Positions 40,106-56,318 of a DNA stretch of 64,000 nt are shown one piece after another. Both the position numbers and the translations under genes were made by a program. This stretch comes from an uncultured Thermotogae bacterium (GTDB taxonomy: Bacteria; Bipolaricaulota; Bipolaricaulia; RBG-16-55-9; DRXL01). The stretch lies in NCBI GenBank assembly GCA_964473325.1, contig CAYYOG010000004.1:48258-112257 (forward strand), in the 5' to 3' direction. Position 1 is the first letter of the stretch. Each line of letters opens with the position of its first letter. The notes beneath the pieces are model-generated. The model made no database searches, had not been told where the DNA came from, and worked only from the letters and a program-made list of their open reading frames with translations.

Positions 40106-40134
40106 AGGAACCTCCTCGCTCACACTCTCGGAAG

Positions 40135-40216
40135 AGTATAGTCGAGCATGACCAGAACGTCAACGAGGGAAGCTGTGTGTGGAGCTCTTGCCTCAAACAA
40201 GCCTAGACGCTATAAT
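40135..40216. promoter_or_regulatory. Back-to-back sigma70 promoters
   Basis: Minus strand TTGACG-17-TATACT (40163-40135); plus strand TTGCCT-17-TATAAT (40188-40216). Confidence 0.7.
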
Positions 40217-40222
40217 CTCGCC

Positions 40223-41242: not shown

Positions 41243-41271
41243 AGGGAGGGATTCCACGAAGCTGGGCGAAG

Positions 41272-42201
41272 ATGCATCACGAGCCGGAAGAAGAGATCCC
41301 GCCACAACGTGGGTACTGGGTGCCTCAGAACTTCGGAGGGCTGCCTCCGGAGTTCTCTCGTTTTGCGTCGGCGCGTGCGGTCGTTCTCCCTGTGCCGTAT
41401 GATCTGACGACGTCGTATCTAGCAGGCACACGTCACGGCCCTCAAGCAATCATCGAGGCGTCGGAACATTTGGAGCTTTACGACGAAGAGCTCCAGTGTG
41501 AGCCCTATCGCGTAGGGATTCACACCCTGCCTCCGCTGGAGCCTTCAGCAGCTAGTCCCCAAGAGACTCTCCAGCGCGTCGAAGAAGTCATTGCGTGGCT
41601 TGTGGACCATGACAAATTCCCAGTGATGCTCGGTGGTGAACACTCGCTGACGCTTGCGCCTGTGCGGGCGTTCCGAAAAAGATTCAAAGAGTTTTCGGTC
41701 TTGCAGCTCGATGCCCATGCTGACTTGCGTGACAGTTTCCAGGGCACACCATTCAATCACGCTTGTGTCGGGCGACGGATACACGAGCTTGGGGTCAACC
41801 TCGTGCAGATCGGGGTTCGCGCGATTAGCCCTGAAGAAGCTGAATTTATCAGCAGGGCGAGGAATCTGCACGTCTGCTTCGATTATGCGCTGCAGAGCGA
41901 CTCAGCCCAAATTGAAGAAGCTCTCCATAGGCTGCGTACCCTCGTCTATGTGACTATAGACTTAGACGTCTTCGACCCCGCGCTGATGCCCGCTGTGGGC
42001 ACCCCAGAACCCGGTGGGCTCGATTGGTACACTGTGCTCAAGATTCTCCGATACGTTAAAGAAACACACACGGTGCTCGGCTTTGACGTCGTCGAGCTGT
42101 GCCCTATTGCGGGGATAGTGGGGCCGAACTTTCTTGCTGCCAAGCTCGTCTACAAGATGCTCGGCTATTTTCTCAGCACGACGAAAGGAGGTCAGAGATG
42201 A
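41272..42201 (+). CDS. speB: Agmatinase (ureohydrolase family)
   Basis: GGEHS, DAHADL, DLDVFDP, GTPEPGG motifs. Confidence 0.9.
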
Positions 42202-42752
42202 ACGATTTTCCCCTGGTGCCGACGCGGGTCTTCTTCACGAAGGGGGTCGGGACACACAAGGAAGAGCTGCGCTCATTCGAGGCAGCGCTGCGTGATGCAG
42301 GGATCGAAAAATATAATTTAGTCCATGTCTCGAGCATCTTGCCACCGCGGTGCAAGATCATCCCGAAATCTGAGGGGCTCAAAGAGCTCAAGCCGGGGCA
42401 GATCGTCTTCTGCGTCATGGCGCGCTGCTCCAGCGATGAACCTCGTCGGCTTATTGCTGCGTCTATCGGGTGTGCCGTGCCCGCTGACCCTGATGCCTAC
42501 GGGTATCTCAGCGAACACCATGCCTACGGACAGAACGAAAAGCAAGCGGGCGACTACGCTGAAGACCTCGCAGCTTCTATGCTGGCCTCTACCTTGGGAA
42601 TTGAGTTCAACGACACAGCGAACTGGGACGAGAAAGAGCAAGTCTGGAAGATGTCGGGGAAGATCGTGCGCACGCGCAACGAGACGCAAACAGCAATTGT
42701 CAACGGCGACGGGTGGACGACAGTCGTCGCGGCAGCCGTCTTTCTCTTCTAA
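42198..42752 (+). CDS. pdaD: Pyruvoyl-dependent arginine decarboxylase
   Basis: [36 protein letters not shown]; ATGA overlap with speB. Confidence 0.9.
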
Positions 42753-42753
42753 A

Positions 42754-42837
42754 CCAGGCTTCGCCTGCACGCTGCGCGTGGGCTTCATCTTCGCCGGCCC
42801 CTGGCCGGCGAAGGCGTACGGTCCAGGCGAAGCCTGG
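42754..42837 (-). repeat. MITE-like repeat family B, complete copy
   Basis: Perfect 14-bp terminal inverted repeats CCAGGCTTCGCCTG/CAGGCGAAGCCTGG; internal CTTCGCCGGCC/GGCCGGCGAAG hairpin; 84 bp. Confidence 0.88.
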
Positions 42838-42852
42838 CCCACACGCGGAGTG

Positions 42853-42881
42853 TTGACAGAATCACCGATATCGATTAATAT
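42853..42881 (+). promoter_or_regulatory. sigma70 promoter of tRNA-Lys/Glu
   Basis: TTGACA-17-TAATAT, 9 nt before the tRNA. Confidence 0.7.
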
Positions 42882-42890
42882 AAAAGAGCT

Positions 42891-42963
42891 GGGTCGTTAG
42901 CTCAACTGGTAGAGCATCCGGCTCTTAACCGGAGGGTTGTAGGTTCGAGTCCTACACGACCCA
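42891..42963 (+). tRNA. tRNA-Lys (CTT)
   Basis: Acceptor GGGTCGT/ACGACCC; anticodon arm TCCGG-CTCTTAA-CCGGA; GGTTCGAG T-loop; CCA not encoded. Confidence 0.95.
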
Positions 42964-42970
42964 CATCTTT

Positions 42971-43043
42971 GTCCCCATCGACTAGCGGTCTAGGTCACGG
43001 CCCTTTCAAGGCCGAAACGGGGGTTCGAATCCCCCTGGGGACG
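42971..43043 (+). tRNA. tRNA-Glu (TTC)
   Basis: Acceptor GTCCCCA/TGGGGAC; CGGCC-CTTTCAA-GGCCG; GGTTCGAA T-loop; CCA not encoded. Confidence 0.95.
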
Positions 43044-44187
43044 TATCTAGTCTATCGCTCACCAGCTCGATCAAGTCTGTGACTTGAATCTGGCTGCCTA
43101 CGACTTTTGTGGCCTCGTGGAGGTTCACCATGCAGAATTGGCAAGCCGTCACAACAAGATCAGCGCCGGTGTCGATGGCCTGCTTCAAGCGAGTCTCGGC
43201 TAAGCGTGCTTGTTCGTCTTTGATGGGCTCAACCCACATCCTGCCGCCACCGCCCCCGCAACAGAGCGCGCGTTCTCTACAGTCTTTCATCTCGATCAAC
43301 GTGACGCCGGGCATCGCGTTGATGATCTGCCTAGGGGCGTCGTAGATCTTATTGTGCCTGCCCAAAAAGCAAGGATCATGATACGTAACTTTAATCGGTG
43401 GCCCCTCAGCGAAGCTCAATCGGCGAGCTTGGAGAAGCTCTGCAAGGAACTGAACATAGTGCTGCACTTCCCAAGGTCCTGAAGGGTACTCATTTTTGAA
43501 AGCATTATAGCAGTGAGGTGACCCAGCCACGATCTTCTTGATCTTATACTTGTGCCAGAGCGCAGTATTAGTGTCAACGAGCATCTGAAAGAGCCCTTCT
43601 TCACCCAAACGGCGAATGCAACTGCCGCAACAGTTCTCTTCTTCTCCTAGGATGCCAAAGGGAATCCCAGAGTGTATCAAGACACGGACCATAGATTGAG
43701 CGATCTTCTGGGCTCTGGGATCATACGAGGCAGCACAACCGACATCATAGAGTATTTCCGTGTTTTCCGTGGGACGCCCGATATTGAGTGCAGCAGCCCA
43801 TTTAGCGCGTTCGCTCCGTGGCTTGCCCCAAGGGTTTCCGTACCGATCTGTCCCTTTAAAAGCAGCAAAGAGTGCCTTCGTGACGTGTTGAGGTACGCTG
43901 CCATTCTCGACGGCCCGGCTCCGCAGTGAAGCCAAAACTTCTGGAGGCTTGACTGCCATGGGACAGCGTGCCACGCAGGCGTTACAACTCGAGCAAACCC
44001 AGAGCTGCTCAGAACTGAGAACTTCTTCTGGTGCCAGTTGTGCTTTGAGCATTAACTTCCTCGGGTTGAAGCCCACGGTAGTGCTAAAGGGGCAGATGCT
44101 GCCGCAGGCCCCACACTGAAAACAGATATTCGCTTGCCGCAGCCTCGACTCTATGACTTTCTCGATATCAGTTATCTCTGCTGCCAT
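43006..44187 (-). CDS. HdrD/GlpC-like Fe-S oxidoreductase (2x4Fe-4S + 2 CCG domains)
   Basis: CFQCGACGSICP, CSSCNACVARCP, ENCCG, YHDPCFLGR, LCCGGGGG. Confidence 0.88.
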   Translation of the reverse strand: MAAEITDIEKVIESRLRQANICFQCGACGSICPFSTTVGFNPRKLMLKAQLAPEEVLSSEQLWVCSSCNACVARCPMAVKPPEVLASLRSRAVENGSVPQHVTKALFAAFKGTDRYGNPWGKPRSERAKWAAALNIGRPTENTEILYDVGCAASYDPRAQKIAQSMVRVLIHSGIPFGILGEEENCCGSCIRRLGEEGLFQMLVDTNTALWHKYKIKKIVAGSPHCYNAFKNEYPSGPWEVQHYVQFLAELLQARRLSFAEGPPIKVTYHDPCFLGRHNKIYDAPRQIINAMPGVTLIEMKDCRERALCCGGGGGRMWVEPIKDEQARLAETRLKQAIDTGADLVVTACQFCMVNLHEATKVVGSQIQVTDLIELVSDRLDTSPGGFEPPFRP

Positions 44188-44203
44188 ACTCTATCTAGCT
44201 CCT

Positions 44204-46009
44204 TCATAGTGCTTCTGCGACCAGCTCGGCGATCTCTTTGACTGCGATTCGCTTTTCATTCGCAGTAGTTTTAATAGCATCGCTGAACATCACTATGTCT
44301 TTGGGGCACGCTACGACAAGGTACTGTACTCCGTTTAGTGCAACAGCTTCGCGGACGCGACTCTCGCTGGGGCGCTCCTTCAAGTCAGCGAGCTCTTCCA
44401 TCCAGATCCGGCCACCCCCAGCGCCACAACAGTACGAATGCCCAAACGAGCGAGGCATCTCTCTGATCTTTACCCCTAAAGCGCGCAGCACCCGACGCGG
44501 AGGATCATACACCCCGTTGCAGCGCCCCAAATAGCATGGATCGTGATAGGTCAGCATATACTCGAGCTTCTGACGGAGGCGGAGCTTGCCCGTTTGGATC
44601 AGATCGTCTATAAGCTCTGTATGGTGAAGGACTACTTTGTCCCAGTTGTACTCGTTCTTGAGCGCATGGTAGCTATGGGGGTCTGTGGTCACGATCTTTT
44701 CGCAGCGCTCCATCGCTTTGATGTTCTTCTCTCTCAATATCTCGAAGAGCCCTTCTTCACCCACGCGGCGGACGTCTGTGCCCGCGTTCCGCTCTCCCTC
44801 GTAAAGAATGCCAAAATCCAGCCCTGCAGCACGGAAGATCTGTGCTACAGCCCGGGTGATCGGCTGCACCCTTGGGTCATAAGAAGCGTAGTCCCCGACA
44901 AACCATAAATATTCCACCGGCTCTGTGCGGGCATCTTTAATGTGAAAATCGAGCCCTTCCGTCCATTTGGGACGAGCGCGCTCTGACTTCCCAAACGAAT
45001 TGCCATAGCGTGTGAGACGAGCTAGGACATCTTGTAGTGATTGGTCCATCTCACCGCGTGCTACAAGGGCACGACGCATCTCCACGATGAGCGCGACATG
45101 CTCATTGAGAATAGGGCACCGCTCCATACACGCATAGCAAGTAGTGCATGACCAGATCTCTTTGGCTGAGATAGCATCGCCGGCAGGATTTGTCGCGCAC
45201 ATCAGCTCTTTGATATGGTGGATAAGCATCTTGGGCGAGAGCGCGGAACCGCTGTTCAAGGCGGGGCAAGCGCGGTCACAGCGCCCACACGCGGCGCAGG
45301 TCAGGCCGTTGAACAGCTGGCGCCACGTGAACTCTTCAAGGCGTGAGGCTCCCTCCGAGGGCGGTGGCACACTCCCAGGACGTAGCGAACCAAAGAACAC
45401 ACTGAAGGGCGAAGCCACTATGTGCCAGTGGTCTGAGAGCGCCATAAGGGCGACTATGGCCAGGCCAGCTCCTATGTAGATCCACCATACCCATGGAAAA
45501 GAATTCCTCAGGAGAAAAGCAAGAAGCATTACCCCGGAAAGCAGCTTGAGGACTAGAGTAGCATCAGCTGCTCTTTCCAAGCGAGGAGGAGTGAAAATAT
45601 AGCGTCGCACAGCTGCTACTATTAATGCTGTCAGAGCGAATGCACCCAGTACTTCCAGAGCAGAAGCCATCCACGGCACTTCATAAGCATAAGCAATAGG
45701 GGCGAAGGGGAACAGCTCCTTGAACAGGTTCCAGAGAAAGCCGACTGCGTGAAAGACGAACGCCCAAAAGATAAAGAAATGAGCGACACCGATCAGGGGC
45801 TCTTCAAAGAGCTTCTTTTGTCCCAATACATAGGTGAGAACAAGCTTGACCCGCTGAGGGAGTTGATCCCAGCGGTTTTCAGGGCGTGCTCTCTTGAAGA
45901 GGCGAATATAATGTACCGCGCGCCAAATGAAAAGAGAAAAAGAAGCTGCCGTGCCAAGCCAGAGAAGGAGACTTCCCACAAGCGTTGTTGTGGTATGCAT
46001 CTCGCTCAT
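44204..46009 (-). CDS. Membrane-anchored FadF/HdrF-like Fe-S oxidoreductase
   Basis: N-terminal TM domain (AHFFIFWAF), CAACGRCDRACP, CTTCYACMERCP, YHDPCYLGR, YCCGAGGG. Confidence 0.85.
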   Translation of the reverse strand: MSEMHTTTTLVGSLLLWLGTAASFSLFIWRAVHYIRLFKRARPENRWDQLPQRVKLVLTYVLGQKKLFEEPLIGVAHFFIFWAFVFHAVGFLWNLFKELFPFAPIAYAYEVPWMASALEVLGAFALTALIVAAVRRYIFTPPRLERAADATLVLKLLSGVMLLAFLLRNSFPWVWWIYIGAGLAIVALMALSDHWHIVASPFSVFFGSLRPGSVPPPSEGASRLEEFTWRQLFNGLTCAACGRCDRACPALNSGSALSPKMLIHHIKELMCATNPAGDAISAKEIWSCTTCYACMERCPILNEHVALIVEMRRALVARGEMDQSLQDVLARLTRYGNSFGKSERARPKWTEGLDFHIKDARTEPVEYLWFVGDYASYDPRVQPITRAVAQIFRAAGLDFGILYEGERNAGTDVRRVGEEGLFEILREKNIKAMERCEKIVTTDPHSYHALKNEYNWDKVVLHHTELIDDLIQTGKLRLRQKLEYMLTYHDPCYLGRCNGVYDPPRRVLRALGVKIREMPRSFGHSYCCGAGGGRIWMEELADLKERPSESRVREAVALNGVQYLVVACPKDIVMFSDAIKTTANEKRIAVKEIAELVAEAL

Positions 46010-46965
46010 CCTTTAGGCCTTCTAAGGGCATCTACCAAGGCGTGCAGCATATCTGAGGCCTCAGCGACAACGCCGTAGTGTGCCACGTTAAAGATAGGAG
46101 CTGCAGGGTCAGTATTCACTGCCACGATGAGCTCAGAATTTTTCATGCCTTCTGTGTGTTCAGGTGCCCCGCTAATCCCTAACGCAAGATAGAACTTGGG
46201 CTTCACTTGAATCCCTGAGCTCCCCACTTGTCGTGTGGCCGGCAGCCATCCCTGGTCGATCACGGGACGCGAGCCGCAGACCGCTCCACCCAATGTCTTA
46301 GCCAGCTCTTCTGCTACAGCAAGGTTTTCCTGATCGCCAATGCCGCGTCCCACGGCTACTAAGACGTCCAGCTTTGTAATGTCGAGATCGCCTGCTGCTG
46401 GCTCTATGTATTTCACGAATTTCACCTTGGGCGTTTCAGGAAGAGCTACGTGTACTGTCTCGATAGGGGGCATTCGTTCTGTGCGCCGTGCAGGCCTGGC
46501 CCCAGGTAAAATCCCCAAAATGGTCATCGGCGCTTCTGATGCAGCCGTGACCTCGATCTTACCCCCGTACAAGAGACACGTAGCTTGAATGGTACCGTCT
46601 ACTACGAAGACATTTTTGCAAGAGTTCACAAAGGGGACATTCAGCTGTGCAGCAAGCAAAGCTCCCAAATCCCACGACAGATTTGTCAACGGGATCAAGA
46701 GCGCCTTGGGCTGACGCTCCTTCAGGAGCATGGCCAGCGCCTCAGCGTACACTTCCGGTGTAGCGTCGGCTAGGGCCGGGCAGTCCGCATAAAGAACAGC
46801 ATCAGCCTCGCCTAGCTTTTCTCCCAGTTCTCTCATATTATGCCCAAGCAGTACAGCTTCTACTTTAGGAGCCAACTCTCGAGCGAGCGAAAGCATCTCG
46901 TAGGTCACTTCAGAGATCTGCCCTCTCCAGTGCTCAGCGAATACCCATACGGTCATAGCTCTCAC
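46006..46965 (-). CDS. etfA: Electron transfer flavoprotein alpha subunit
   Basis: VAVGRGIG, GSRPVID.GW, QVGSSG, GISGAPEH, AVNTDP.APIF. Confidence 0.92.
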   Translation of the reverse strand: MRAMTVWVFAEHWRGQISEVTYEMLSLARELAPKVEAVLLGHNMRELGEKLGEADAVLYADCPALADATPEVYAEALAMLLKERQPKALLIPLTNLSWDLGALLAAQLNVPFVNSCKNVFVVDGTIQATCLLYGGKIEVTAASEAPMTILGILPGARPARRTERMPPIETVHVALPETPKVKFVKYIEPAAGDLDITKLDVLVAVGRGIGDQENLAVAEELAKTLGGAVCGSRPVIDQGWLPATRQVGSSGIQVKPKFYLALGISGAPEHTEGMKNSELIVAVNTDPAAPIFNVAHYGVVAEASDMLHALVDALRRPKG

Positions 46966-47738
46966 CCTTGTGGAAGAAGGCCACGAGCAGATAGGAGCTC
47001 GCAGATTTTTCTGGCGACTTCTTCAGGAGAGCCTTCTAAAAATTCTGCGCGCTCAGCAACCTGCGGCTTCGCCATGCGAACGACCTTGACTGGACTCGAC
47101 GTTGACACTGCGGGTGCAGCAACGCTCTCGATCTTCTGGGATTTCATGGCAGCCCGAACCTTCACTACGGGCACGTAGCGTGGCGGCTGCTCGGCCGATT
47201 GAATCCCTAGAACTGCCGGCAGAGGGATCTCGAATTCGCCGCGTATCCCGCCGGCATATTCTCGGGTTACGAGAGCCCTCTGATCCGTAATCTTCACCGA
47301 TGAGATGATCCCCAAGTAAGGCAGCTTCAGAGCCTGCGCGAGGCTCGGGGCCAGCAGCCCATCGAGGTCATCAATTGCTTGAACCCCCGTCAGAATAAGA
47401 TCTGCTGGCCACGCCTCAGCGAGAGTCGTCAGGGTTTGGGCAAAAAGCCGCGCGAGGCCAGCAGTACTGGAAACGCTCTGTGGAGCGGAGACCTTGATCG
47501 CCCGATCTGCTCCCTTCGCTAAAGCAGTAAAGAGAACATCATCGACACCGGGAGCCTCCAGCGCTAGAACCGTCACTGTCCCGCCATGACGCTCTTTCAG
47601 AAGCAACGCTTGTTCGAGAGCGTGTTCGTCACGCTCGTTGGCAATGAAGCGAAGATCGGAAAGATCTAAAGAATTTTCAGAAATTTTTAGCTCCTCTACG
47701 ACGTCAGGCACCATCTTGAGGAGAACGAGAATCTTCAT
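46962..47738 (-). CDS. etfB: Electron transfer flavoprotein beta subunit
   Basis: MKILVLLKMVPD, DEHALEQAL, ALAKGAD, LTGVQAID. Confidence 0.92.
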   Translation of the reverse strand: MKILVLLKMVPDVVEELKISENSLDLSDLRFIANERDEHALEQALLLKERHGGTVTVLALEAPGVDDVLFTALAKGADRAIKVSAPQSVSSTAGLARLFAQTLTTLAEAWPADLILTGVQAIDDLDGLLAPSLAQALKLPYLGIISSVKITDQRALVTREYAGGIRGEFEIPLPAVLGIQSAEQPPRYVPVVKVRAAMKSQKIESVAAPAVSTSSPVKVVRMAKPQVAERAEFLEGSPEEVARKICELLSARGLLPQG

Positions 47739-47749
47739 GTTCAGCTCCG

Positions 47750-50140
47750 CTAAACCAAAACTTGTACAGCTTTCTCTATCTCTTCTTCCGTCACGGTAGC
47801 TAATAGCTTTTCTAGCTCTTTGAGCTTTTCCACGAACTTGTCGGCCTCGCTGGCACTGAACCAGCCCAGCTGTAATCGTTCGGGATTAATGCCTTTGGCC
47901 ACAAGCTTCTTCCTCCAGCGAGTAAACCGCTCTTTGGCCTTGAGGTTCCCCTGAATATAGTGGCACTCTCCTTCGTGACACCCGCTCATCAAGACGATTC
48001 CCGCTCCTCTCTTGAAAGCGTGCAGAACGAAGGCCTCATCGATCCGCCCGGAGCACATCGTCCTGATAATTCTGACTGAAGCGGGGTACTCCATGCGAGA
48101 GATCCCGGCCAGATCAGCCGCTGCATACGAACACCAATTGCAAGCAAATACGAGTATCTTCTCTTTCGCGTTGGTTTCCAAAGCCGCATCTATCTGGGCC
48201 AAGATCTGCTCATCGGTGAAGTGGCGTTGCCTGATCGCGTTACTTGGGCACTCGGCAACACAGGTCCCGCAGCCTTGACAGGCAGCCTCGGTGATCTTCG
48301 CTTTCCCGTCCATCTGAGCCGCATGGAATGGGCAGACCTTCTCACAGAGCTTGCACGCCGTACACTGCTCTTCGTTGACTACAGCTGTCAGGGCTTCGAT
48401 CTTGATAGCGCCTTCTTTCATGAGGCGGCTAGCTCTGGAAGCGGCGGCCTTGGCTTGAATGGAGCTCTCTCGAATGTCCTTAGGGCCCTCTGCCGTGCCA
48501 GCGAGGAATACGCCAGCGATAGCCGTATCGACGGGCTCAAGCTTCGGGTGCTTCTCCAAGAAGAATCCCGTCGCGTCGCTTGAAAGATTGAACTTCTTTT
48601 GGAGGTCCTTGCTCCCTGCTCCTGGCTCTAGACCGACGGAGAGTATCACCATATCGACGGTCTGCTCATAGACTTCACTGAGCAAGATATTCTCCCCGCG
48701 GAGGGTGAGACTCTTATCTGGATTCTCGGTGATTTGAGAGGGAATGCCCTTAACGAAACGAATTCCTTCGGTGCGCGCACGCCAGTACATCTCCTCAAAG
48801 CCCTTGCCCTTGGCCCTGATATCTATGTAATAGACTGTGATCTGAGCTGAGGGTAGTTTCTCCTTGAGCAAGAGGGCCTGCTTGATGGTGATCATACAGC
48901 AGATGCCGCTGCAGTAGGGATGGGCCCCAAATGCAGCGTTGGTTGCGCGTGAGCCCACACACTGAATAAACGCTACCCGCTCAGGAGGTTTGCGCGTGCT
49001 GGGCCGGATCAGCTTGCCCCCGGTGGGACCAGTGGGGCTGATAATGCGCTCGAAATCCAGCGTCGAGATGACATCATCGAATCTGCCGTATCCATACTCA
49101 GGAATGCTGCTGGGATCGAAGGCATCCGCTCCGGTAGCGACGATGACCGTGTCCGCATGGATTTGAAACTCTCTTTCGTAAGGGGTGTCAAAACTGATAG
49201 CTTTGGCCTGGCACGCTTCTATGCACCTCTCACACGCGATAAAGTTCTCTTTATTCAAGCACGCTGCAGGATCTATAGCATATTCAGCGGGCACAGCTTG
49301 GGGGAAGGTCTTGTAGATGGCCTTTCTTTGGGAGAGCCCCGCGTTGAACTCGTCAGGGACCGTGATAGGACAAACGGCGACACAGTCGTTGCAGCTGGTG
49401 CAGTCCTTACTCACAAACCGAGCTTTTTGTCTAATGGTCACGGAGAAATTACCCACGTGGCCTTTGACTTCTTTGACCTCAGCGTTAGTTAAGAGCTGGA
49501 TGTTAGGATGGCGAGCCACCTCGGACATCTTGGGCGCTAAAATACACGTGGAGCAGTCCAGGGTGGGGAAGGTCTTGTCCAGCTGGGCCATCCGGCCACC
49601 GATGAACGGCTCCTTTTCTACTAGATAGACTGTATAACCGGAATCAGCGAGATCCAAAGCTGCTTGAATTCCAGCGATCCCGCCGCCGATGACCAGACAA
49701 TGGGAGCCGATGGCGATCTCGCTGTCTTTGAGTGGCTGAAGCAATCGCGCCCGGGCCACCGCCATCTTAATGAGATCTTTGGCTTTTTCTGTCGCTTGAT
49801 GGCCGTTCTTATGCACCCAGCTGGCTTGCTCGCGGATGCTCGCCATCTCAAATAAATACTTATTCAAGCCGGCTCGCTCACAAGCCGCCCGAAAGGTGGG
49901 CTCATGCATCTTCGGCGAGCAGGCAGCGACCACCACTCGGTTTAATTTCTGTTCTTTGATGTCGAGCTCGATCTCGCGCTGGCAAGGCTCTGAGCAGGCG
50001 TACATCATGGTTTTCGCGACCACGACGCCGTCTAAATCCTTAGCGAACTCCGCGACTTCTTTGACATCGACGACGCCGGCAATATTCGTGCCGCAGTGGC
50101 AGATGTAGACCCCAACACGGATTTCTTCTGTCGGTTTCAT
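47750..50140 (-). CDS. hdrA: Heterodisulfide reductase subunit A fused to MvhD
   Basis: VYICHCGTNI, VAACSP, VIGGGIAG, QLDKTFPT.DC, QCVGSR, CSGICC, four CxxCxxCxxxC motifs; C-terminal MvhD FACNWCSY..CSGRID..GCHEGECHY. Confidence 0.92.
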   Translation of the reverse strand: MKPTEEIRVGVYICHCGTNIAGVVDVKEVAEFAKDLDGVVVAKTMMYACSEPCQREIELDIKEQKLNRVVVAACSPKMHEPTFRAACERAGLNKYLFEMASIREQASWVHKNGHQATEKAKDLIKMAVARARLLQPLKDSEIAIGSHCLVIGGGIAGIQAALDLADSGYTVYLVEKEPFIGGRMAQLDKTFPTLDCSTCILAPKMSEVARHPNIQLLTNAEVKEVKGHVGNFSVTIRQKARFVSKDCTSCNDCVAVCPITVPDEFNAGLSQRKAIYKTFPQAVPAEYAIDPAACLNKENFIACERCIEACQAKAISFDTPYEREFQIHADTVIVATGADAFDPSSIPEYGYGRFDDVISTLDFERIISPTGPTGGKLIRPSTRKPPERVAFIQCVGSRATNAAFGAHPYCSGICCMITIKQALLLKEKLPSAQITVYYIDIRAKGKGFEEMYWRARTEGIRFVKGIPSQITENPDKSLTLRGENILLSEVYEQTVDMVILSVGLEPGAGSKDLQKKFNLSSDATGFFLEKHPKLEPVDTAIAGVFLAGTAEGPKDIRESSIQAKAAASRASRLMKEGAIKIEALTAVVNEEQCTACKLCEKVCPFHAAQMDGKAKITEAACQGCGTCVAECPSNAIRQRHFTDEQILAQIDAALETNAKEKILVFACNWCSYAAADLAGISRMEYPASVRIIRTMCSGRIDEAFVLHAFKRGAGIVLMSGCHEGECHYIQGNLKAKERFTRWRKKLVAKGINPERLQLGWFSASEADKFVEKLKELEKLLATVTEEEIEKAVQVLV

Positions 50141-50679
50141 AATGGGAGAGATCGCACCCCGTGCTCGTAGCCTGTGTGAAAGGCTGCTTCGTTCAGTTCT
50201 TGGGCCTTCTTAGGAACGGTATCGAGAATTGCTTGTTGCATCGCTTGAGGACTGACAAGCTTGGTCACCGCCGTGAAGAAGCCCAGCATGACAATATTCG
50301 TGACGACCCTCGTGCCGAGCCCTTCCGCAAGGCGATTGGCCCCAATCTTGTAGATCTGGGCATCGCCATGGTTGTGTGTATTTATAGTGACAAGGTCTTC
50401 ATCGAAAATAATGATCCCGTGGAGCTGGTGAGCACCATAGACGTTATAAGCCTCTTGAGACATAAATACGGCAATATCCGGTTTGATAACCTTCGGGTAA
50501 TCGATAGGGGCGTCAGAGATGATGACATCAGCACTGACTCTGGCTCCACGGCTTTCTGGCCCGTAGGACTGAGTCATGACCGCGTTCTTCTTGTCGAGAA
50601 GGGCGGCTTTCCCCAAAATGAAGCCAGCTGTAACGACACCCTGACCGCCAAAACCGCTCAATCTGACCTCAACTTTCAT
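50137..50679 (-). CDS. korC: 2-oxoacid:ferredoxin oxidoreductase gamma subunit
   Basis: SGFGGQG, SYGPESRG, NIVMLG. Confidence 0.88.
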   Translation of the reverse strand: MKVEVRLSGFGGQGVVTAGFILGKAALLDKKNAVMTQSYGPESRGARVSADVIISDAPIDYPKVIKPDIAVFMSQEAYNVYGAHQLHGIIIFDEDLVTINTHNHGDAQIYKIGANRLAEGLGTRVVTNIVMLGFFTAVTKLVSPQAMQQAILDTVPKKAQELNEAAFHTGYEHGVRSLPL

Positions 50680-51530
50680 GATGTGATGACCCCGGCTTTT
50701 TGTAGCACTTCGCGCTGTCTCTCGAGGAAAGTAGGCCTTTCTCTATCGATGAAGTTTCCCAGCACGATCTTCGAGCCTTTCTTCATGGTGATCCCAATCT
50801 CATGGAGATCGGCGTGCGGGTCAATGACGGAGCTCTCTTGGTACCATTTCATTTCATCGAGTCCCATGCCCAAGTCATTAGGGCGACCAAAGCTCGTAGG
50901 GCATGGGGCTAGGACTTCGATAAAAGTGAACCCGTTCTTCTCAAAGGCTCTGCGGATCGCATCCCGGAGGTGACGGACATGCAGGGTCGTCCACCGCGCT
51001 ACGAAGACTGCGCCCGCTGCCGCAGCCAGATAGGGCAGATTAAACCCGTCCTCCGAATTGCCGTAGGGGGAGGTCGTCGTAAACGCATATTCTGGGGTAG
51101 TTGGCCCCAGCTGCCCCCCAGTCATGCCGTAGTTGAAATTATTCACACAAATAACGTTCAAGTCTATATTCCTGCGGGCTGCATGGATGAAGTGATTACC
51201 GCCGATGGCGAACAAGTCCCCATCGCCGCTGAAGACAGTGACTTCTAAGCTTGGGTTGGCAATCTTCAGGCCAGTCGCAAACGGGATCGCCCGGCCATGA
51301 GTCGTGTGATACGAATCGATGTTCACGTAGCCGGCAACTCTGCCTGTACACCCGATGCCTGAGACGATGATCTGTTTTTCGATGGGGATTGGCGCGCTGC
51401 GCATGGCTTCAATATAAGCCATCATAGCCACGCCGAGGCCGCAGCCAGCGCACCAGATATGGGGCATCCGATCTGCACGTAAGTACACGTCTTCAGGGTG
51501 TGTATCTGCCTTACAAATCGCTGTGCTCAT
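50676..51530 (-). CDS. korB: 2-oxoacid:ferredoxin oxidoreductase beta subunit
   Basis: WCAGCG, SGIGC, HGRA, TPP motif SGDGDL.AIGGNH, NYGMTGGQ, PCPT. Confidence 0.92.
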   Translation of the reverse strand: MSTAICKADTHPEDVYLRADRMPHIWCAGCGLGVAMMAYIEAMRSAPIPIEKQIIVSGIGCTGRVAGYVNIDSYHTTHGRAIPFATGLKIANPSLEVTVFSGDGDLFAIGGNHFIHAARRNIDLNVICVNNFNYGMTGGQLGPTTPEYAFTTTSPYGNSEDGFNLPYLAAAAGAVFVARWTTLHVRHLRDAIRRAFEKNGFTFIEVLAPCPTSFGRPNDLGMGLDEMKWYQESSVIDPHADLHEIGITMKKGSKIVLGNFIDRERPTFLERQREVLQKAGVITS

Positions 51531-51539
51531 GAGAATCTC

Positions 51540-52664
51540 CTAAACGCATTCTTCAATAGCTGCAGTTATAGCTTCGGGAGGCATCATATCTCCCCCAGCG
51601 TGCACAACTCGCTTCACCGGATAACGGGCGAAGCGCTCTACCTCCCGCGCCATCTGGCCCAGGTTCACTTCTGGGACGATGAACTTTCTGTCTGCAAGTT
51701 CCTTGATCTTCTCTTCAGGGAATGGCCAGCACGTGATAAGTCGCAGCAAGCCAACGCGGATCCCGCGCTCCCTGGCCTCTCGCATAGATTTTCTTGCTGA
51801 GCGCGCTGTCGAGCCGTACGCCACGAGCACGATCTCCGCATCTTGCAAGAAATACTCTTCGTATTCGATGATCTCGTGTCTGTGTTTTTGGATCTTCTGC
51901 ACGAGGCGGGCGAGCATCCGTTGATGCGCTTCCGCGGTGGTCGCAGGATAGCCTCGCTCGTCATGGGTCAAACCAGTAACGTGGATTCTGTATCCCTCTC
52001 CAGCGAGCGCCATAGGAGGTACAAGGTCTTCATCGGGCTCAAAAGGCTTGAAGCCATTCTTCCTCAGAGGCCGCTTTCTGTTTATAATCTGTATATCTTC
52101 TTCCTTGGGAATGACGACCCGCTCGATCATATGGCCTACGATCTCATCAGCCATGACGAAAGCAGGCACTCGATATCTTTCGGACATATTGAACGCTTTG
52201 ATCGTGAAGTCGAACATCTCTTGGGGGGAGCTGGGGGCATAGGCGATGACCTCGTAATCGCCATGGGAGCCCCATTTGGCTTGCATCATATCGGCCTGGC
52301 TCGTCAGAGTTGGCAACCCTGTAGAGGGCCCTCCTCGCTGGACATCAATAATAACAAAAGGGGTCTCCGTGATGAACCCCAGGCCAATGTTCTCTTGCAT
52401 CAAAGAGAAGCCCGGCCCGGAAGTAGCAGTCATTGCTTTCAACCCTGCACAAGAGGCTCCGAGAACGGCAGCGATGCTTGCCAACTCATCCTCCATCTGG
52501 ATGAAGTGGCCTCCGACTTGGGGGAGCCTGCGGGCCAACCGCTCGGCAACCTCACTAGACGGTGTAATTGGGTATCCCGCGAAGAAACGGCACCCCGCGG
52601 CAATAGCTCCTTCGGCCGCCGCGAAGTCGCCGTTCATGAAGTGCTCTCCCGTCAGGACTTTCAT
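51540..52664 (-). CDS. korA: 2-oxoacid:ferredoxin oxidoreductase alpha subunit
   Basis: GYPITPSSE, QMEDE, TATSGPGFSLMQE, QRGGPSTGLPT. Confidence 0.92.
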   Translation of the reverse strand: MKVLTGEHFMNGDFAAAEGAIAAGCRFFAGYPITPSSEVAERLARRLPQVGGHFIQMEDELASIAAVLGASCAGLKAMTATSGPGFSLMQENIGLGFITETPFVIIDVQRGGPSTGLPTLTSQADMMQAKWGSHGDYEVIAYAPSSPQEMFDFTIKAFNMSERYRVPAFVMADEIVGHMIERVVIPKEEDIQIINRKRPLRKNGFKPFEPDEDLVPPMALAGEGYRIHVTGLTHDERGYPATTAEAHQRMLARLVQKIQKHRHEIIEYEEYFLQDAEIVLVAYGSTARSARKSMREARERGIRVGLLRLITCWPFPEEKIKELADRKFIVPEVNLGQMAREVERFARYPVKRVVHAGGDMMPPEAITAAIEECV

Positions 52665-52670
52665 TCTCTC

Positions 52671-52926
52671 TCACCCAACTTCGACGCTGTAAATGGCAAA
52701 CTCTGGACAGATCAACATACAGGTCTTGCAGTCTACGCAGGCTTCTTCTTGGCCGGCCTTCACTCGAGGAAGATGGTACCCTTTGCTGTTGATCTCCTCA
52801 GATTCTTCTAAGACTTTCTTAGGGCAGAATGTCCAACAAAAGCCGCATCCCTTACATCGTTCGGGGATGATATGGACGCGCCCTCGAGGGGTTCTCAACT
52901 TCTCTCCGAGGAGTTTTTGTGCACTC
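52671..52926 (-). CDS. korD: 2-oxoacid:ferredoxin oxidoreductase delta subunit (2x4Fe-4S)
   Basis: [28 protein letters not shown]; start assumed near MSAQKL (approximate). Confidence 0.85.
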
Positions 52927-53416
52927 ATACGCTCTTTTTTTAGTATAAATGGTTGACACAAAATTGCCATGACGTTGATCATGATAAGTATTGATTCTAC
53001 ACAGATATCGCTTGCTGGCCCTCTTGATAGATGTCATGACTTCCAACTGCAAAGATCACTACAATAACAAACAGTTACCCCATTGGCTGTAGAATTGCTG
53101 AAGCGCCGTAGTCGCTATGGCTCACCCCCCAGCCTGCCGAGCGAGGCCGTCTGAGTAGCTTTTCTACAGCTTGGCTGGGTCGAGTATCTCTTGCTTGCTT
53201 GGATTCGAGCCAGCCTGTGACTTCACAGACTTGATCGACAAAGACAAAGCTGCGACAGATGTTGGCTGTAAGATGAAACGCGCGAGTGAGTATGAGGAAG
53301 AAACGTGCGGCAGGGCATCGGTTACGTTCCGGACATTGAGCATCTGGGGAGAGCATGGCGAGACTACTCTAACCGATACTGGGGGGCAGAACAAGTTAAT
53401 CCACTCCCAAGGGTTA

Positions 53417-53445
53417 TTGACGTGTACCCTATCAGGTGTTACAAT
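53417..53445 (+). promoter_or_regulatory. sigma70 promoter of tRNA-Gly/Arg/His
   Basis: TTGACG-17-TACAAT. Confidence 0.75.
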
Positions 53446-53458
53446 TATTAAGACCTCC

Positions 53459-53530
53459 GCGGGCGTAGCTCAGAGGTAGAGCACTGGCCTTCCAAGCCAG
53501 GTGTCGCGGGTTCGATTCCCGTCGCCCGCT
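53459..53530 (+). tRNA. tRNA-Gly (TCC)
   Basis: GCGGGCG/CGCCCGC; CTGGC-CTTCCAA-GCCAG; GGTTCGAT. Confidence 0.95.
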
Positions 53531-53533
53531 CCC

Positions 53534-53603
53534 CCAGGCTTCGCCTGGACCGTACATCTTCGCCAGCCACAGGCTGGCGAAGACGAGGCCCACGCGCAGC
53601 GTG
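53534..53603 (+). repeat. Repeat family B, copy filling the Gly-Arg spacer (right TIR absent)
   Basis: CCAGGCTTCGCCTGGACCGTAC..CTTCGCCAGCC/GGCTGGCGAAG..GGCCCACGCGCAGCGTG matches the reverse complement of 42754-42837. Confidence 0.88.
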
Positions 53604-53678
53604 CGCCCGTAGCTCAATGGGAAGAGCAGGGCCCTTCTAAGGCTCAGGTTGCAGGTTCGAGCCCTGCCGGGCGCGCCA
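53603..53678 (+). tRNA. tRNA-Arg (TCT)
   Basis: GCGCCCG/CGGGCGC; anticodon loop CTTCTAA; GGTTCGAG; CCA encoded. Confidence 0.93.
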
Positions 53679-53679
53679 G

Positions 53680-53749
53680 CAGGCTTCACCTGCACCGTAC
53701 GCCTTCGCCCGCCAGAGGCGGGCGAAGATGAAGCCCACACGCAGTGTGT
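53680..53749 (+). repeat. Repeat family B, copy filling the Arg-His spacer (right TIR absent)
   Basis: CAGGCTTCACCTGCACCGTACGCCTTCGCCCGCC/GGCGGGCGAAGATGAAGCCCACACGCAGTGTG. Confidence 0.88.
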
Positions 53750-53827
53750 GAGGGACGTAGCTCAGCCTGGCAGAGCATCGGCCTGTGGAGCCGACCGTCG
53801 CGGGTTCAAATCCCGTCGTCCCTCCCA
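53750..53827 (+). tRNA. tRNA-His (GTG)
   Basis: Encoded G-1 opposite C73; AGGGACG/CGTCCCT; TCGGC-CTGTGGA-GCCGA; CCA encoded. Confidence 0.95.
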
Positions 53828-53828
53828 G

Positions 53829-54251
53829 ATGCGCCATAATATAATAATATGGGTTGGCATAGTGCTGATGGTGGGGGCAATAGGTCTCTCTGGGTGTGCT
53901 CCGCTTGTTGTGGAGGAAGCCCAGCTCGATGAGCCCTTCACACTTTTTGTCCGACAAAAGGCCCAAGTTGGCGATCTCCAGATTCGCTTTATCGGCGTGC
54001 CAGAGGACTCTCGGTGCCCTGTTGGTGTCGATTGCGTCTGGGCTGGAAACGCAAAGATCGTGCTGGGCGTCTCCCTTAAAGGCAGTACGGAAGAGACTGC
54101 AATCACTCTCAATTCGACTGTAGACCCTCAAGAAGCTCTCTACGCGGGCTATCGCATTCGGTTTGTCTCCCTCAAGCCGACGCCCCTCAGTGGACGCGCG
54201 ATCAATCCTGCAGAGTATCGCGTCACTCTGATCGTCTCGCGGGCACCCTGA
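53829..54251 (+). CDS. Conserved hypothetical lipoprotein
   Basis: MRHNIIIWVGIVLMVGAIGLSGC lipobox; EDSRCPVGVDCVWAG Cys-pair motif. Confidence 0.75.
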   Translation: MRHNIIIWVGIVLMVGAIGLSGCAPLVVEEAQLDEPFTLFVRQKAQVGDLQIRFIGVPEDSRCPVGVDCVWAGNAKIVLGVSLKGSTEETAITLNSTVDPQEALYAGYRIRFVSLKPTPLSGRAINPAEYRVTLIVSRAP

Positions 54252-54261
54252 TATTCTTTGA

Positions 54262-54783
54262 TCAGGAGATCACGATCACGAAAAGTTCTTGCGGCCCGTG
54301 CACGCCGATCACGGGCGTCAGTTCTATATCAGCTGTGCGGCTTGGCCCGGTCACGAAGACAAAATCCCGCGGGGTGCGTTCGAGCTCTCTCTGGCAGAAC
54401 GCGAAAGCTTCCTCGAGCGTCTCAACAATCTGATCGGCGCGAATGACAGCAATATGCACTGGCGGTAGCGCCGCGACCAATTCTGAAATCCCATCATGAC
54501 TGATGAGCAGCGAGCCTGTCTCGGCGACAGCAAGTTCAGCTCCTGAAATCCCGACATCGGCGCGGGCGATCTCATGCCCGTTGACAAGCTCATAGCCGTC
54601 TTTGCGCAGCGTGTTCTCTACCCTGTGCGCAAGAGCAAACGGTGCGAGGGCGACAGCGCGGGCGTGGCGCGAGCGTACGATCTCCAACACAAGCTCCAGG
54701 GCGTGCTCTTCAGAGCTAGCGCGGTGAGCTTTTCCCGCGACGCGCTCTAGCTCGTCTATGAAGCGTCCCACAAGATCGTTCAT
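54262..54783 (-). CDS. lutC: LUD-domain protein LutC/YkgG
   Basis: AVAETGSLL, LPPVHIAV, VTGPSRTADIE..V.GVHGP. Confidence 0.88.
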   Translation of the reverse strand: MNDLVGRFIDELERVAGKAHRASSEEHALELVLEIVRSRHARAVALAPFALAHRVENTLRKDGYELVNGHEIARADVGISGAELAVAETGSLLISHDGISELVAALPPVHIAVIRADQIVETLEEAFAFCQRELERTPRDFVFVTGPSRTADIELTPVIGVHGPQELFVIVIS

Positions 54784-56150
54784 TCAAAGATCTTCCCCGG
54801 ATTGAGAATGCCGTTGGGGTCTAACAGCTTTTTGATCTCTTTCATCAGCTCATAGCTTGCGCCGTGCTCGGCTTGCATAAATTTGATCTTGCCCACGCCA
54901 ACCCCGTGCTCGCCCGTTGCCGTGCCGCCCAGCTCTAGAGCGCGCAGGACGATGGCATCGTTGGCCGCGTCGGCGCGGGATTTCTCGTCTGGGTCTTCAG
55001 GATTATAAAAGATCCCGACGTGAAAATTCCCGTCGCCGGCGTGGCCGAAGACCGGTCCATAAAGCGAGTGCTCAGCGAGCTTCTGCTGCGCGAACTCAAC
55101 CATCGTTGGAAACTTTGAGATCGGCACGGCAACGTCGACGACAATGGCGCGCTTGCCGGGATTGAGTGCTGCGGCCGCGTATGCTAAATGATGGCGCGCC
55201 TCCCAGAGCTTGTTGCGCTCTTCTTGCCCTAAGGCGCTCGAAAAGCTTGTGCAGCCGTTCTGCTCGCAGATCTCTTGGGCGAAGCGCAGATCATCTCGTA
55301 CGACTTCTAAAGCATGACCGCGAAATTCTAGAAAGAGCGTGGGTTGCTCAGCAAGCTTAAGATTCTTTAGATAATTAATCGCTCGCATGCAGTCAGGGTC
55401 AAGGAGCTCTAACGCTGCCGGGTCCAAGCCTGACTGCACGATCTGCACGACGGCTTGGGCGGCGTGTTCGAGCGTAGGGAACGCTGCCGTCGCTGCAGAG
55501 ACCTCTTTGGAAATGCCTGTTAAGCGCACTGTGATCTCTGTGAAGATTCCTAGCGTCCCTTCAGAGCCGACGAACAGCCCAACTAAATTATAGCCCGATG
55601 ACGTGCGCATAGCGCGGTTGCCCACTCTGAGGATATCCCCATTCGCAAGCACGACTTCGAGAGCTAAGACATAGTCTTTCGTCGCGCCGTATTTGATCGC
55701 TTGAATGCCGGCAGCGTTATTGGCTACCATCCCGCCGATGGTCGCGGGGGCTCCTGGATCAGGCGGGAAGCAAAGCCCATACTTTGAGAGTTTCTGATTC
55801 AGCGCGGTGTGCGTGACGCCAGGCTGGACGACAGCTTGCAGGTCCTCCGGGTAGATCGCGATGATTTGATTCATTTGCGAAAGATCGAGCACGATGCCGC
55901 CGTAGATAGGGACGGGGTTGGCTTCCATGCTCGTGCCTGCACCCCAGGCAGTGACGGGGATCTTGCGCTCGTTGGCGAATCTCAGGATTTTTGAGATCTC
56001 TTGGGCGCTCTTGGGGTAGATGACGGCGTCGGGCTTGTGTTCGGGGTGATGGGATTCATCGCGGGCGTGGATGAGCAGCTCTGACTCTCCCGTGAGGACG
56101 CGCTCTGGGCCGAGAAGGGCTTGAAGCTCTTGAAGATCTGTATTTTGCAT
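54780..56150 (-). CDS. FAD-binding oxidoreductase (GlcD / D-lactate dehydrogenase family)
   Basis: PDAVIYP, GAGTS, PPDPG..ATIGG, GSEGTLG, GHAGDGNFH, GEHGVG, LNPGK. Confidence 0.9.
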   Translation of the reverse strand: MQNTDLQELQALLGPERVLTGESELLIHARDESHHPEHKPDAVIYPKSAQEISKILRFANERKIPVTAWGAGTSMEANPVPIYGGIVLDLSQMNQIIAIYPEDLQAVVQPGVTHTALNQKLSKYGLCFPPDPGAPATIGGMVANNAAGIQAIKYGATKDYVLALEVVLANGDILRVGNRAMRTSSGYNLVGLFVGSEGTLGIFTEITVRLTGISKEVSAATAAFPTLEHAAQAVVQIVQSGLDPAALELLDPDCMRAINYLKNLKLAEQPTLFLEFRGHALEVVRDDLRFAQEICEQNGCTSFSSALGQEERNKLWEARHHLAYAAAALNPGKRAIVVDVAVPISKFPTMVEFAQQKLAEHSLYGPVFGHAGDGNFHVGIFYNPEDPDEKSRADAANDAIVLRALELGGTATGEHGVGVGKIKFMQAEHGASYELMKEIKKLLDPNGILNPGKIFE

Positions 56151-56204
56151 AGCTGATCAGTACTAAATCCTAACTGAACACGTGCGCAGCGTCAAATCGC
56201 GCCC

Positions 56205-56233
56205 TTGCAGTGCTCGCACTCTTGCCCTATAAT
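56205..56233 (+). promoter_or_regulatory. sigma70 promoter of tRNA-Thr
   Basis: TTGCAG-17-TATAAT. Confidence 0.7.
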
Positions 56234-56246
56234 TTTTTTGTCCAAT

Positions 56247-56318
56247 GCCGGCGTAGCTCAGCGGTAGAGCAACGGTTTCGTAAACCGTGGGTCGGAGGTT
56301 CGATTCCTCTCGCCGGCT
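56247..56318 (+). tRNA. tRNA-Thr (CGT)
   Basis: GCCGGCG/CGCCGGC; ACGGT-TTCGTAA-ACCGT; GGTTCGAT. Confidence 0.95.

Follow-up and report, generated by a model that had tools for sequence, protein, structure and literature searches.

A nine-gene kor-hdrA/mvhD-etf operon on a genomic island in Bipolaricaulota combines two conserved redox modules

We analysed a 64,000-nt stretch of DNA from an uncultured bacterium of the phylum Bipolaricaulota (the window: contig C4:48258-112257 of a genome of 1.62 Mb and 90% completeness), in which nine genes encode a 2-oxoacid:ferredoxin oxidoreductase (KorDABC), an HdrA-MvhD fusion protein, an electron-transferring flavoprotein (ETF; EtfBA), an EtfD-like membrane protein and a soluble HdrD-like protein. 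As judged from synteny and homology, these genes form an operon that is a mosaic of two conserved redox modules, korDABC-hdrA/mvhD (module 1) and etfBA-EtfD-HdrD (module 2). We propose, with a probability of roughly 45%, that HdrA would be a reversible bifurcation/confurcation hub, with Kor as its low-potential partner and the chain HdrD-ETF-EtfD-quinone as its high-potential partner. The open reading frames (ORFs) all lie on the minus strand, from 52982 to 43006, at the coordinates first reported; domains were assigned with Pfam and NCBIfam.

52671..52982, minus strand: korD, delta subunit with two 4Fe-4S motifs (Fer4 families; OGOR_delta 60 bits)
51540..52664, minus strand: korA, alpha subunit (POR_N and PFOR_II; NF006412 573 bits, cut-off 411)
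50676..51530, minus strand: korB, beta subunit, binding thiamine pyrophosphate (TPP_enzyme_C)
50137..50679, minus strand: korC, gamma subunit (POR; TIGR02175 92.6 bits, cut-off 81.1), overlapping korB and hdrA by 4 nt each
47750..50140, minus strand: hdrA-mvhD, 796 aa (NF040770 HdrA2 1135 bits, cut-off 1100; FlpD domain at residues 662-779)
46962..47738, minus strand: etfB, small ETF subunit (Pfam ETF, PF01012)
46006..46965, minus strand: etfA, large ETF subunit (ETF and ETF_alpha, PF00766), with a GTG start and a 4-nt overlap on each side
44204..46009, minus strand: EtfD-like protein, 601 aa, with about five transmembrane helices, a 2x[4Fe-4S] domain and one CCG domain
43006..44187, minus strand: HdrD/TfrB-like soluble protein, 393 aa, with an HdrC-like 2x[4Fe-4S] domain and two CCG domains

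In gene order from korD to the HdrD-like gene the junctions measure 6, 9, -4, -4, 11, -4, -4 and 16 nt, and no terminator-like site was seen on the minus strand within the nine-gene block. Because the genes overlap or nearly abut and no such terminator lies between them, a single operon is the only reasonable reading of the sequence. An earlier annotation made from the letters alone (the sequence-only reading) had described just this co-oriented korDABC-hdrA/mvhD-etfBA-FadF-like-HdrD-like operon, and its ORFs, domains and junctions were all confirmed. Its further statement that the operon has no hydrogenase, formate dehydrogenase, separate hdrB or hdrC, or acyl-CoA dehydrogenase also proved correct for the operon itself; elsewhere the genome encodes hdrCB-hdrL-mvhDGA on contig C5 and five acyl-CoA dehydrogenases.

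KorDABC has the full four-subunit domain set (alpha, beta, gamma and delta) of a 2-oxoacid:ferredoxin oxidoreductase of the Kor/Oor type. It shares this subunit set and the delta-alpha-beta-gamma order with KorABCD of methanogens and OorDABC of Helicobacter, but differs from them in that the kor genes are translationally coupled to hdrA and in that its scores against the 2-oxoglutarate equivalog models fall under the cut-offs. The latter include the 2-oxoglutarate ferredoxin oxidoreductase beta model, which is the best NCBIfam match of KorB. Close homologs are named 2-oxoglutarate ferredoxin oxidoreductase by their sources, and those with 70-71% identity to KorA are listed there as Candidatus Bipolaricaulia or Acetothermia. 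In two other genomes of the phylum, G094 and G051, the Kor orthologs lie in clusters with fumarate-reductase-like genes, to which fumarase and malic enzyme genes are added in G051.

HdrA matches the solved methanogen HdrA 8RVU_a over residues 4-657 (E 8e-231) with the Cys motifs in register, and its C-terminal MvhD domain matches 9SW2_D (E 9e-36). Together with the NF040770 score above the cut-off, these full-length matches bear out the earlier assignment as a bifurcation-type module: by homology the protein is a complete HdrA of the HdrA2 type with a fused MvhD, and a candidate bifurcating flavoprotein. It resembles the MvhAGD-HdrABC system of methanogens (5ODC, 8RVU) in the homology along the whole of HdrA, the aligned cluster cysteines and the presence of an MvhD domain, and HdrA2B2C2 of Methanosarcina acetivorans in the fusion of MvhD to HdrA. 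In contrast to these methanogen systems, the operon has no separate HdrB, HdrC or hydrogenase genes, the neighbours of HdrA are Kor and an ETF, and CoM-S-S-CoB (the heterodisulfide of coenzymes M and B) is not expected here.

EtfB and EtfA align with solved ETFs and contain the general ETF domains. The sequence-only reading had allowed for a bifurcating ETF, and this option was lost when the ETF was classified by the motifs of bifurcating ETFs (PMC9232219), which were validated by mutagenesis in Ldh-EtfAB. EtfB reads DDLDGLLAP where bifurcating EtfB has DGDTAQVGP, the motif for the bifurcating FAD (b-FAD), and its orthologs are all of the DDLDG type. The NAD-binding RxFxG is also missing from EtfB, the aligned stretch being APQSVSS, and in EtfA a Cys occupies the position of the Arg that contacts N5 of b-FAD (LctC R205), the orthologs having Cys, Ser or another residue there. 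This non-bifurcating pattern is common to all ETF orthologs aligned. A group 2 bifurcating ETF of the Bcd/Car/Lct/Fix type is ruled out, as three of the three motifs are missing; by its motifs the ETF serves as a carrier instead of providing another bifurcation site, and HdrA is the sole candidate left for that role.

The 601-aa protein matches EtfD of Mycobacterium smegmatis (9OJN) with E 1e-72 (phmmer). EtfD is an ETF:menaquinone oxidoreductase whose cryo-electron microscopy structure was published in 2026 (PMC13083937, PDB 9OJN). The family of the 601-aa protein is the 'HdrF' of PMC2702500, and 'HdrF'/DUF224 Fe-S oxidoreductases adjoin etfBA in Desulfobacterium and in syntrophs (PMC2702500, PMC6687939). 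For the protein earlier labelled 'FadF-like', the family thus now has a solved member in EtfD. When the ligands reported for EtfD (PMC13083937) are placed on the alignment, His77 takes the position of the heme-b ligand His78, and Phe84 that of the quinone-site Phe85. For the second heme ligand, His241 in EtfD, the candidate is His197 in the last helix, which was identified by conservation and not by direct alignment. His77, His197 and an RRY motif are invariant in 14/14 aligned family members. All eight cysteines of the cubane clusters D3 and D4 are kept. The noncubane cluster D2 (five Cys and His583) retains four of its cysteines and the His, Cys712 being replaced by Asp in the whole subfamily, and none of the four ligands of the linear [3Fe-4S] cluster D1 (Cys503, 538, 581 and 584) is present, these positions being D, N, D and S. 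The same D1-less pattern occurs in all close relatives aligned, and of the proteins in that alignment only a paralog on contig C12 keeps the D1 ligands. A Pfam scan of the N-terminal 230 residues gave no match.

The EtfD-like protein has more than 7,400 matches at E <1e-50. Members of its subfamily with 55-60% identity occur in Acidobacteriota, Planctomycetota, Verrucomicrobiota, Gemmatimonadota and Anaerolineae, where they are named only "Fe-S oxidoreductase". On the evidence of these alignments, a large unnamed EtfD-like subfamily that lacks the site of the linear 3Fe-4S cluster is now defined. In the ETF clade of the operon, which comprises Bipolaricaulota and related metagenome contigs, the D1-less members pair with a soluble HdrD. 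Like mycobacterial EtfAB-EtfD (9OJN), the operon combines a five-helix membrane domain, the heme-b His, two cubane clusters and a putative CCG noncubane-type site in one protein whose gene adjoins etfBA. The differences are the missing D1 ligands, the Asp in place of one D2 Cys, the length of 601 aa without a disordered C-terminal tail, the company of a separate soluble HdrD paralog and of HdrA, and the lack of an acyl-CoA dehydrogenase in the operon. The paralog on contig C12 (G000:C12:17441-19498; L117 7442-9499) is a second, canonical EtfD of 685 aa, in which the D1 and D2 ligands are complete and the membrane domain is QmoC-like. Its gene has no ETF genes beside it and is flanked by MutY-like and radical SAM genes.

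The soluble HdrD-like protein is a paralog, matched by the soluble part of EtfD at E 2e-60 and by HdrC at 8e-17. It keeps D2 fully and three of the four D1 ligands. Its first CCG domain carries the Hdr-type CC and has SPHC instead of CxxC, and in the second the five-Cys motif is complete. Against the TfrB model it reaches 169 bits, under the cut-off. Orthologs with 67-70% identity adjoin etfBA-EtfD in G081 and G083, two genomes of the same genus.

The operon lies between two clusters of tRNA genes (ARAGORN) that border a genomic island.

43045..53458, no strand: island carrying the operon, 10.4 kb, between the tRNA-Lys/Glu and tRNA-Gly/Arg/His clusters
42891..43044, plus strand: tRNA-Lys(CTT) and tRNA-Glu(TTC), left island border, 97% identical in genus-mate G085
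53459..53827, plus strand: tRNA-Gly, tRNA-Arg and tRNA-His, right island border, directly after tRNA-Glu in genus-mates G085 and G078

Five genus-mates were searched for an empty site with window positions 39575-59039. In two of them (G085:C17 and G078:C63) the tRNA clusters are only 45-50 bp apart within the same outer flanks, and 43045-53458 is wholly missing. The order there is the tRNA-Lys/tRNA-Glu pair (95-97% identical), tRNA-Gly/Arg/His, LUD and GlcD. In tetranucleotide usage the island correlates with the genome at 0.864, which ranks in the 3rd percentile among 279 windows, and its GC content is 53.7% versus 55.7 +/- 1.1%. No integrase was found on the island, and a 93-aa ORF upstream of korD has no Pfam match. 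From these comparisons the operon is placed on a horizontally acquired island. The GlcD-like gene (56150-54780) and the LUD-domain gene (54783-54262) lie 1.3 kb upstream of the operon with no Fe-S partner encoded nearby. This pair is at the same position in genus-mates with or without the island, and was therefore ruled out as part of the operon unit.

Several smaller features were seen at the ends of the island. A perfect 16-nt inverted repeat (TCGATCAAGTCTGTGA) lies near both of them (43067-43082 and 53223-53238), one arm falling within the HdrD gene at its 3' end and its counterpart within the 93-aa ORF that precedes korD, with no further similarity seen around it. The HdrD-like gene ends 39 nt into tRNA-Glu, antisense to it (43006-43044), so that its last 12 codons are in the overlap. 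In a C-terminal alignment these last 12 residues diverge from the orthologs, the conserved core stopping ahead of the tRNA. At the other end of the operon, a promoter-like site (ATGGCA-17-TATACT, 52970-52942) falls within the first 18 annotated korD codons, and an AAAGAG motif stands just before the ATG at 52928. This ATG is possibly the true start of korD, the annotated start at 52982 then being too far upstream.

A synteny search for the nine-gene block covered the 184 other genomes of the phylum, the best 80 HdrA loci from 185,579 species genomes and 33 metagenome loci, with HdrA as the query in the species genomes and the phylum, and the EtfD-like protein in the Joint Genome Institute metagenomes and the phylum. 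The full order was found in 0/184, 0/80 and 0/33 of these, respectively, and with the island also absent from genus-mates, co-conservation of the block as a whole was not borne out. The sequence-only reading had proposed that the block is one circuit; synteny at the level of the modules does argue for a functional link between Kor, HdrA, ETF and the CCG proteins, but the whole block is not co-conserved. In Logan, a KorA (82% identity) and an EtfD-like protein (67% identity) are each recorded on one contig of 47,425 bp, probably one and the same contig from a related organism, which might have this block as well.

Module 1 has no ortholog in 13 genus-mates but has orthologs in five other Bipolaricaulota genomes at 64-80% identity (KorA 64-72%). 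Downstream of it in G094, G095, G096 and G051 come hdrC, hdrB and genes for an Fe-S protein and an FAD_binding_2 flavoprotein of the fumarate reductase/TfrA type, with HdrD further downstream in G094 and G096, and in G101 HdrD directly follows korDABC-hdrA/mvhD. Outside the phylum the closest HdrA-MvhD proteins (52-56% identity) belong to korDABC-HdrL-MvhD-HdrD-HdrA/MvhD clusters, which occur in at least five phyla: Thermodesulfobacteriota, Chloroflexota, Gemmatimonadota, Planctomycetota and Glassbacteria. Among loci with at least 8 kb of upstream sequence, korA lies upstream in 13/34 with HdrA and MvhD, as against 1/19 with HdrA lacking MvhD. Of 53 related loci, 23 have HdrD immediately next to HdrA/MvhD.

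Two of these architectures may be noted in their own right. The sister korDABC-hdrA/mvhD-hdrC-hdrB-fumarate-reductase-like clusters span 5560-15604 of L168 (G094:C8) and 5544-18614 of L170 (G051:C12), the latter continuing with malic enzyme, fumarase alpha/beta and mvhG. From its gene content, the G094/G051 type of cluster looks like a reductive branch of the tricarboxylic acid (TCA) cycle wired to HdrA, of which we found no description for Bipolaricaulota in the literature. The eight-gene korDABC-HdrL cluster is seen at L011 1812-12454 and also in L006, L007, L008, L012, L014, L019, L021, L023 and L025. HdrL is here a protein of 1100-1190 aa with NfnB/GltD-like and HdrA-like parts, and we found no paper linking HdrL with 2-oxoglutarate oxidoreductase.

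For module 2, EtfD-like orthologs occur in only three of the 184 other genomes of the phylum that were searched. In G081 and G083 it heads the cluster etfB-etfA-EtfD-HdrD-hdrC-hdrB-hdrL-mvhD-mvhG-mvhA, which is divergent from a malic-enzyme/PTA gene. On contig C5 of the present genome the malic-enzyme/PTA gene is divergent directly from hdrCB-hdrL-mvhDGA, without the ETF module; judged by this synteny, the ETF module missing from the C5 locus is the one now in the Kor operon. At the same locus, hdrC and hdrB (G000:C5:48599-50058) share only 52-55% identity with those of G083 (L115 6156-7806), compared with 88-96% for the neighbouring hdrL and mvhDGA, which suggests that hdrCB was replaced where the ETF module is missing.

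Further afield, ETF modules adjoin HdrA in other ways. The metagenome contigs L122/L123 have HdrD-etfBA-EtfD-HdrA-mvhDG...hdrCB-mvhA, L121 has etfA-EtfD-HdrA, and Bacillota and Actinomycetota have HdrD-etfBA-HdrA-MvhD. ETF/HdrD(/EtfD) modules and Kor are thus recurrent neighbours of HdrA in several architectures. A Chloroflexota locus (L081 53-15033) encodes etfBA-EtfD-like, a sensor kinase, a hybrid kinase, a response regulator and hdrCBA-mvhDGA; in L122/L123 and L081, the ETF module and the Mvh-Hdr hydrogenase come under a shared two-component system.

Starting from the observed gene content, cofactor motifs, island and module synteny, we infer complex formation, a path for the electrons, and its direction and substrates as follows. 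The flavin of HdrA would be the single site of bifurcation or confurcation. On the low-potential side, the ferredoxin domains of HdrA and KorD or free ferredoxin would lead to the 2-oxoacid / acyl-CoA + CO2 couple (about -500 mV). The high-potential branch would consist of HdrD (as the HdrCB equivalent), the ETF, the EtfD-like protein and quinone or, alternatively, would run from or to acyl-CoA dehydrogenases via the ETF. HdrD is assigned as the partner of HdrA because it is the only HdrCB equivalent in the operon and the constant companion of this ETF clade. The MvhD domain may be a port for a third partner of mid potential, most likely the MvhAG hydrogenase of contig C5.

In the direction that we favour, exergonic reduction of the ETF or quinone would pay for low-potential electrons with which Kor carboxylates succinyl-CoA. 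This would be the logic of FixABCX/EtfABCX (NADH-dependent, to ferredoxin and quinone) built on HdrA instead of a bifurcating ETF. In both cases quinone reduction pays for low-potential electrons and an ETF works with a membrane-associated quinone reductase; however, Fix has its bifurcating flavin in the ETF, whereas the operon ETF lacks the motifs, HdrA would bifurcate, and the quinone reductase is EtfD-like and not FixCX. Sister clusters pair Kor-HdrA with fumarate-reductase-like genes or with the NAD(P)H-binding HdrL, which together with an earlier genomic proposal (PMC6315080, discussed below) suggests that the theme of Kor-linked HdrA may be the supply of low-potential electrons to Kor for reductive carboxylation. 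The reverse is equally possible on present evidence: electrons from Kor and the ETF would be confurcated to H2, which would suit amino-acid breakdown. The genome has Rnf, Wood-Ljungdahl genes, two Mvh/Hdr loci and its five acyl-CoA dehydrogenases, and would suit either direction. That the organism has a quinone pool is plausible in view of a MenA-like prenyltransferase (TIGR00751 126.6 bits, cut-off 102) and a cytochrome bd subunit I-like gene.

A number of points weigh against HdrA as a hub between Kor and the ETF. As the exact nine-gene order was seen in none of the other genomes and loci searched, selection for the combination is unproven. In a FastTree phylogeny of HdrA, with SH-like (Shimodaira-Hasegawa-like) supports only, the operon HdrA falls in a 100%-supported clade with the five Kor-linked Bipolaricaulota HdrAs, sister to 24 HdrAs linked to Kor, HdrL or HdrD, and outside the separate, well-supported clade of ETF-linked HdrAs; the junction of HdrA with the ETF module may be a recent recombination accident. 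The operon encodes neither a donor nor an acceptor of mid potential. MqnA was not found in the genome (90% complete), and quinone biosynthesis is not established. Moreover, 2-oxoacid oxidation already gives electrons at the level of ferredoxin, so that the oxidative direction needs no bifurcation. Finally, the EtfD-like subfamily is abundant in Acidobacteriota, Planctomycetota and Verrucomicrobiota, which are unlikely HdrA carriers, and the module can therefore probably work without HdrA.

The strongest competing explanation, which we consider rather unlikely, is that two independent systems became co-transcribed after recombination and exchange no electrons. Kor-HdrA/MvhD would then be the remnant of a truncated Kor-Hdr system, and EtfBA-EtfD-HdrD an ordinary ETF:menaquinone oxidoreductase serving the acyl-CoA dehydrogenases. 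This would fit an arrangement that is known from one genome, on an island, and whose HdrA and ETF module come from different lineages in the HdrA tree. It would also fit EtfD alone linking ETF to menaquinone in mycobacteria, and the wide distribution of the EtfD-like subfamily, which extends beyond anaerobes and into phyla where HdrA is unlikely. However, ETF/HdrD(/EtfD) modules adjoin HdrA-type genes in at least four architectures in at least four phyla; HdrCB or HdrD normally accompanies a Kor-linked HdrA as its partner, and in this operon the ETF-type HdrD is the sole protein of that kind; and a canonical EtfD with all its cluster ligands is already present on contig C12.

It is still less probable that the operon encodes a ferredoxin:disulfide reductase, modelled on HdrA2B2C2 with CoM-S-S-CoB, in which Kor reduces HdrA, HdrA-HdrD reduces a soluble or protein disulfide, and ETF-EtfD is a side branch. 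HdrA does pass the cut-off of the HdrA2 model, both CCG domains of HdrD have the Hdr-type CC, the second of them with its five-Cys motif complete, and the frequent direct adjacency of HdrD to HdrA/MvhD (the 23/53 loci above) points the same way. The HdrD of the operon is, however, of the ETF-linked subtype with SPHC replacing CxxC, and neither a DsrC/TusE-type carrier nor NrfD was found in the genome (90% complete), the former being the point that counts here. Nor is this bacterium expected to make coenzyme M or coenzyme B, which also counts against a disulfide reductase.

We regard as very improbable an assembly artefact, through a mis-join at tRNA or repeat sequences, or decaying, non-functional cargo. 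Both junctions of the island do abut conserved tRNA genes and repeat-rich spacers, its composition is atypical, and the last gene runs into tRNA-Glu. Nevertheless, the nine frames are intact and full length relative to their orthologs, the internal junctions are free of repeats, and KorA and the EtfD-like protein recur in identical form on 3-4 recorded contigs, with 92-95% variants in other assemblies, on contigs of 13.9 and 6.6 kb. An LctBCD-like lactate-oxidising system, in which the upstream GlcD and LUD proteins feed the ETF and Kor, acting on pyruvate, supplies reduced ferredoxin, was rejected as scarcely credible: GlcD-like and LUD genes do lie 1.3 kb upstream and EtfA is closest to LctC among solved structures, but the pair keeps its place in genus-mates without the island, making the adjacency a by-product of insertion, three tRNA genes on the opposite strand stand in between, and the ETF has neither the b-FAD, NAD and Arg motifs nor the ferredoxin domain on which Lct depends.

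Coupling of Kor to Hdr is not itself new. Clusters of korABCD-tfrAB-flxABCD-hdrABC were described in tubeworm symbionts and Thioflavicoccus mobilis (Rubin-Blum et al. 2019, PMC6315080), where the kor, tfr and flx-hdr genes were proposed, on genomic grounds only, to form one complex that delivers low-potential electrons directly to Kor. Both there and here, genes for a 2-oxoglutarate-type ferredoxin oxidoreductase are interspersed with those for a bifurcating module of the HdrA type and for a partner of high potential. In the present operon, however, that partner is ETF, EtfD-like protein and HdrD instead of a thiol:fumarate reductase, the FlxABCD NADH module is absent, MvhD is fused to HdrA and HdrD replaces HdrBC. 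The fumarate-reductase-like version occurs in the sister Bipolaricaulota genomes and not in this one, where neither a TfrA/FrdA ortholog nor fumarase was found and where the operon has no flx genes. Beyond PMC6315080, PMC2702500 and the EtfD papers we found no Kor-HdrA-ETF-EtfD cluster in the literature. The earlier suggestion of an undescribed circuit may thus hold for this combination, which we did not find described, but not for Kor-Hdr coupling, which had already been proposed (PMC6315080).

Every component of the operon comes from a known family, and the structure of EtfD was likewise known. What is new, on the sequence comparisons made here, is the combination, its nature as a mobile mosaic, the recurrence of ETF/HdrD(/EtfD) modules with HdrA, and the D1-less EtfD-like subfamily. 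Because Kor and ETF/HdrD(/EtfD) modules are recurrently placed beside HdrA, the data suggest that HdrA may be a general hub with exchangeable low- and high-potential partners, among them Kor, Mvh hydrogenase, fumarate reductase, NAD(P)H modules and ETF.

The finding is of moderate to good interest for bioenergetics, as it touches two long-standing problems: how anaerobes dispose of or use the high-potential electrons of ETF, which matters in syntrophy and fermentation, and where the very low-potential electrons for 2-oxoacid synthases come from. As a natural test case the operon is the most compact, having nine genes and encoding no further partners. A bolder claim, that HdrA uses ETF as its high-potential partner through an HdrD adaptor and so constitutes a new class of flavin-based bifurcating/confurcating enzyme, is in our view unlikely. 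If it were true, 2-oxoacid oxidation (about -500 mV) would be tied to acyl-CoA dehydrogenation (about -10 mV), consecutive steps in amino-acid and fatty-acid breakdown. In the relatives, where the ETF module would be tied to the Mvh hydrogenase, ETF electrons could leave as H2 without reverse electron transport at the membrane. Run backward, it would charge Kor so that CO2 could be fixed, with quinone reduction meeting the cost.

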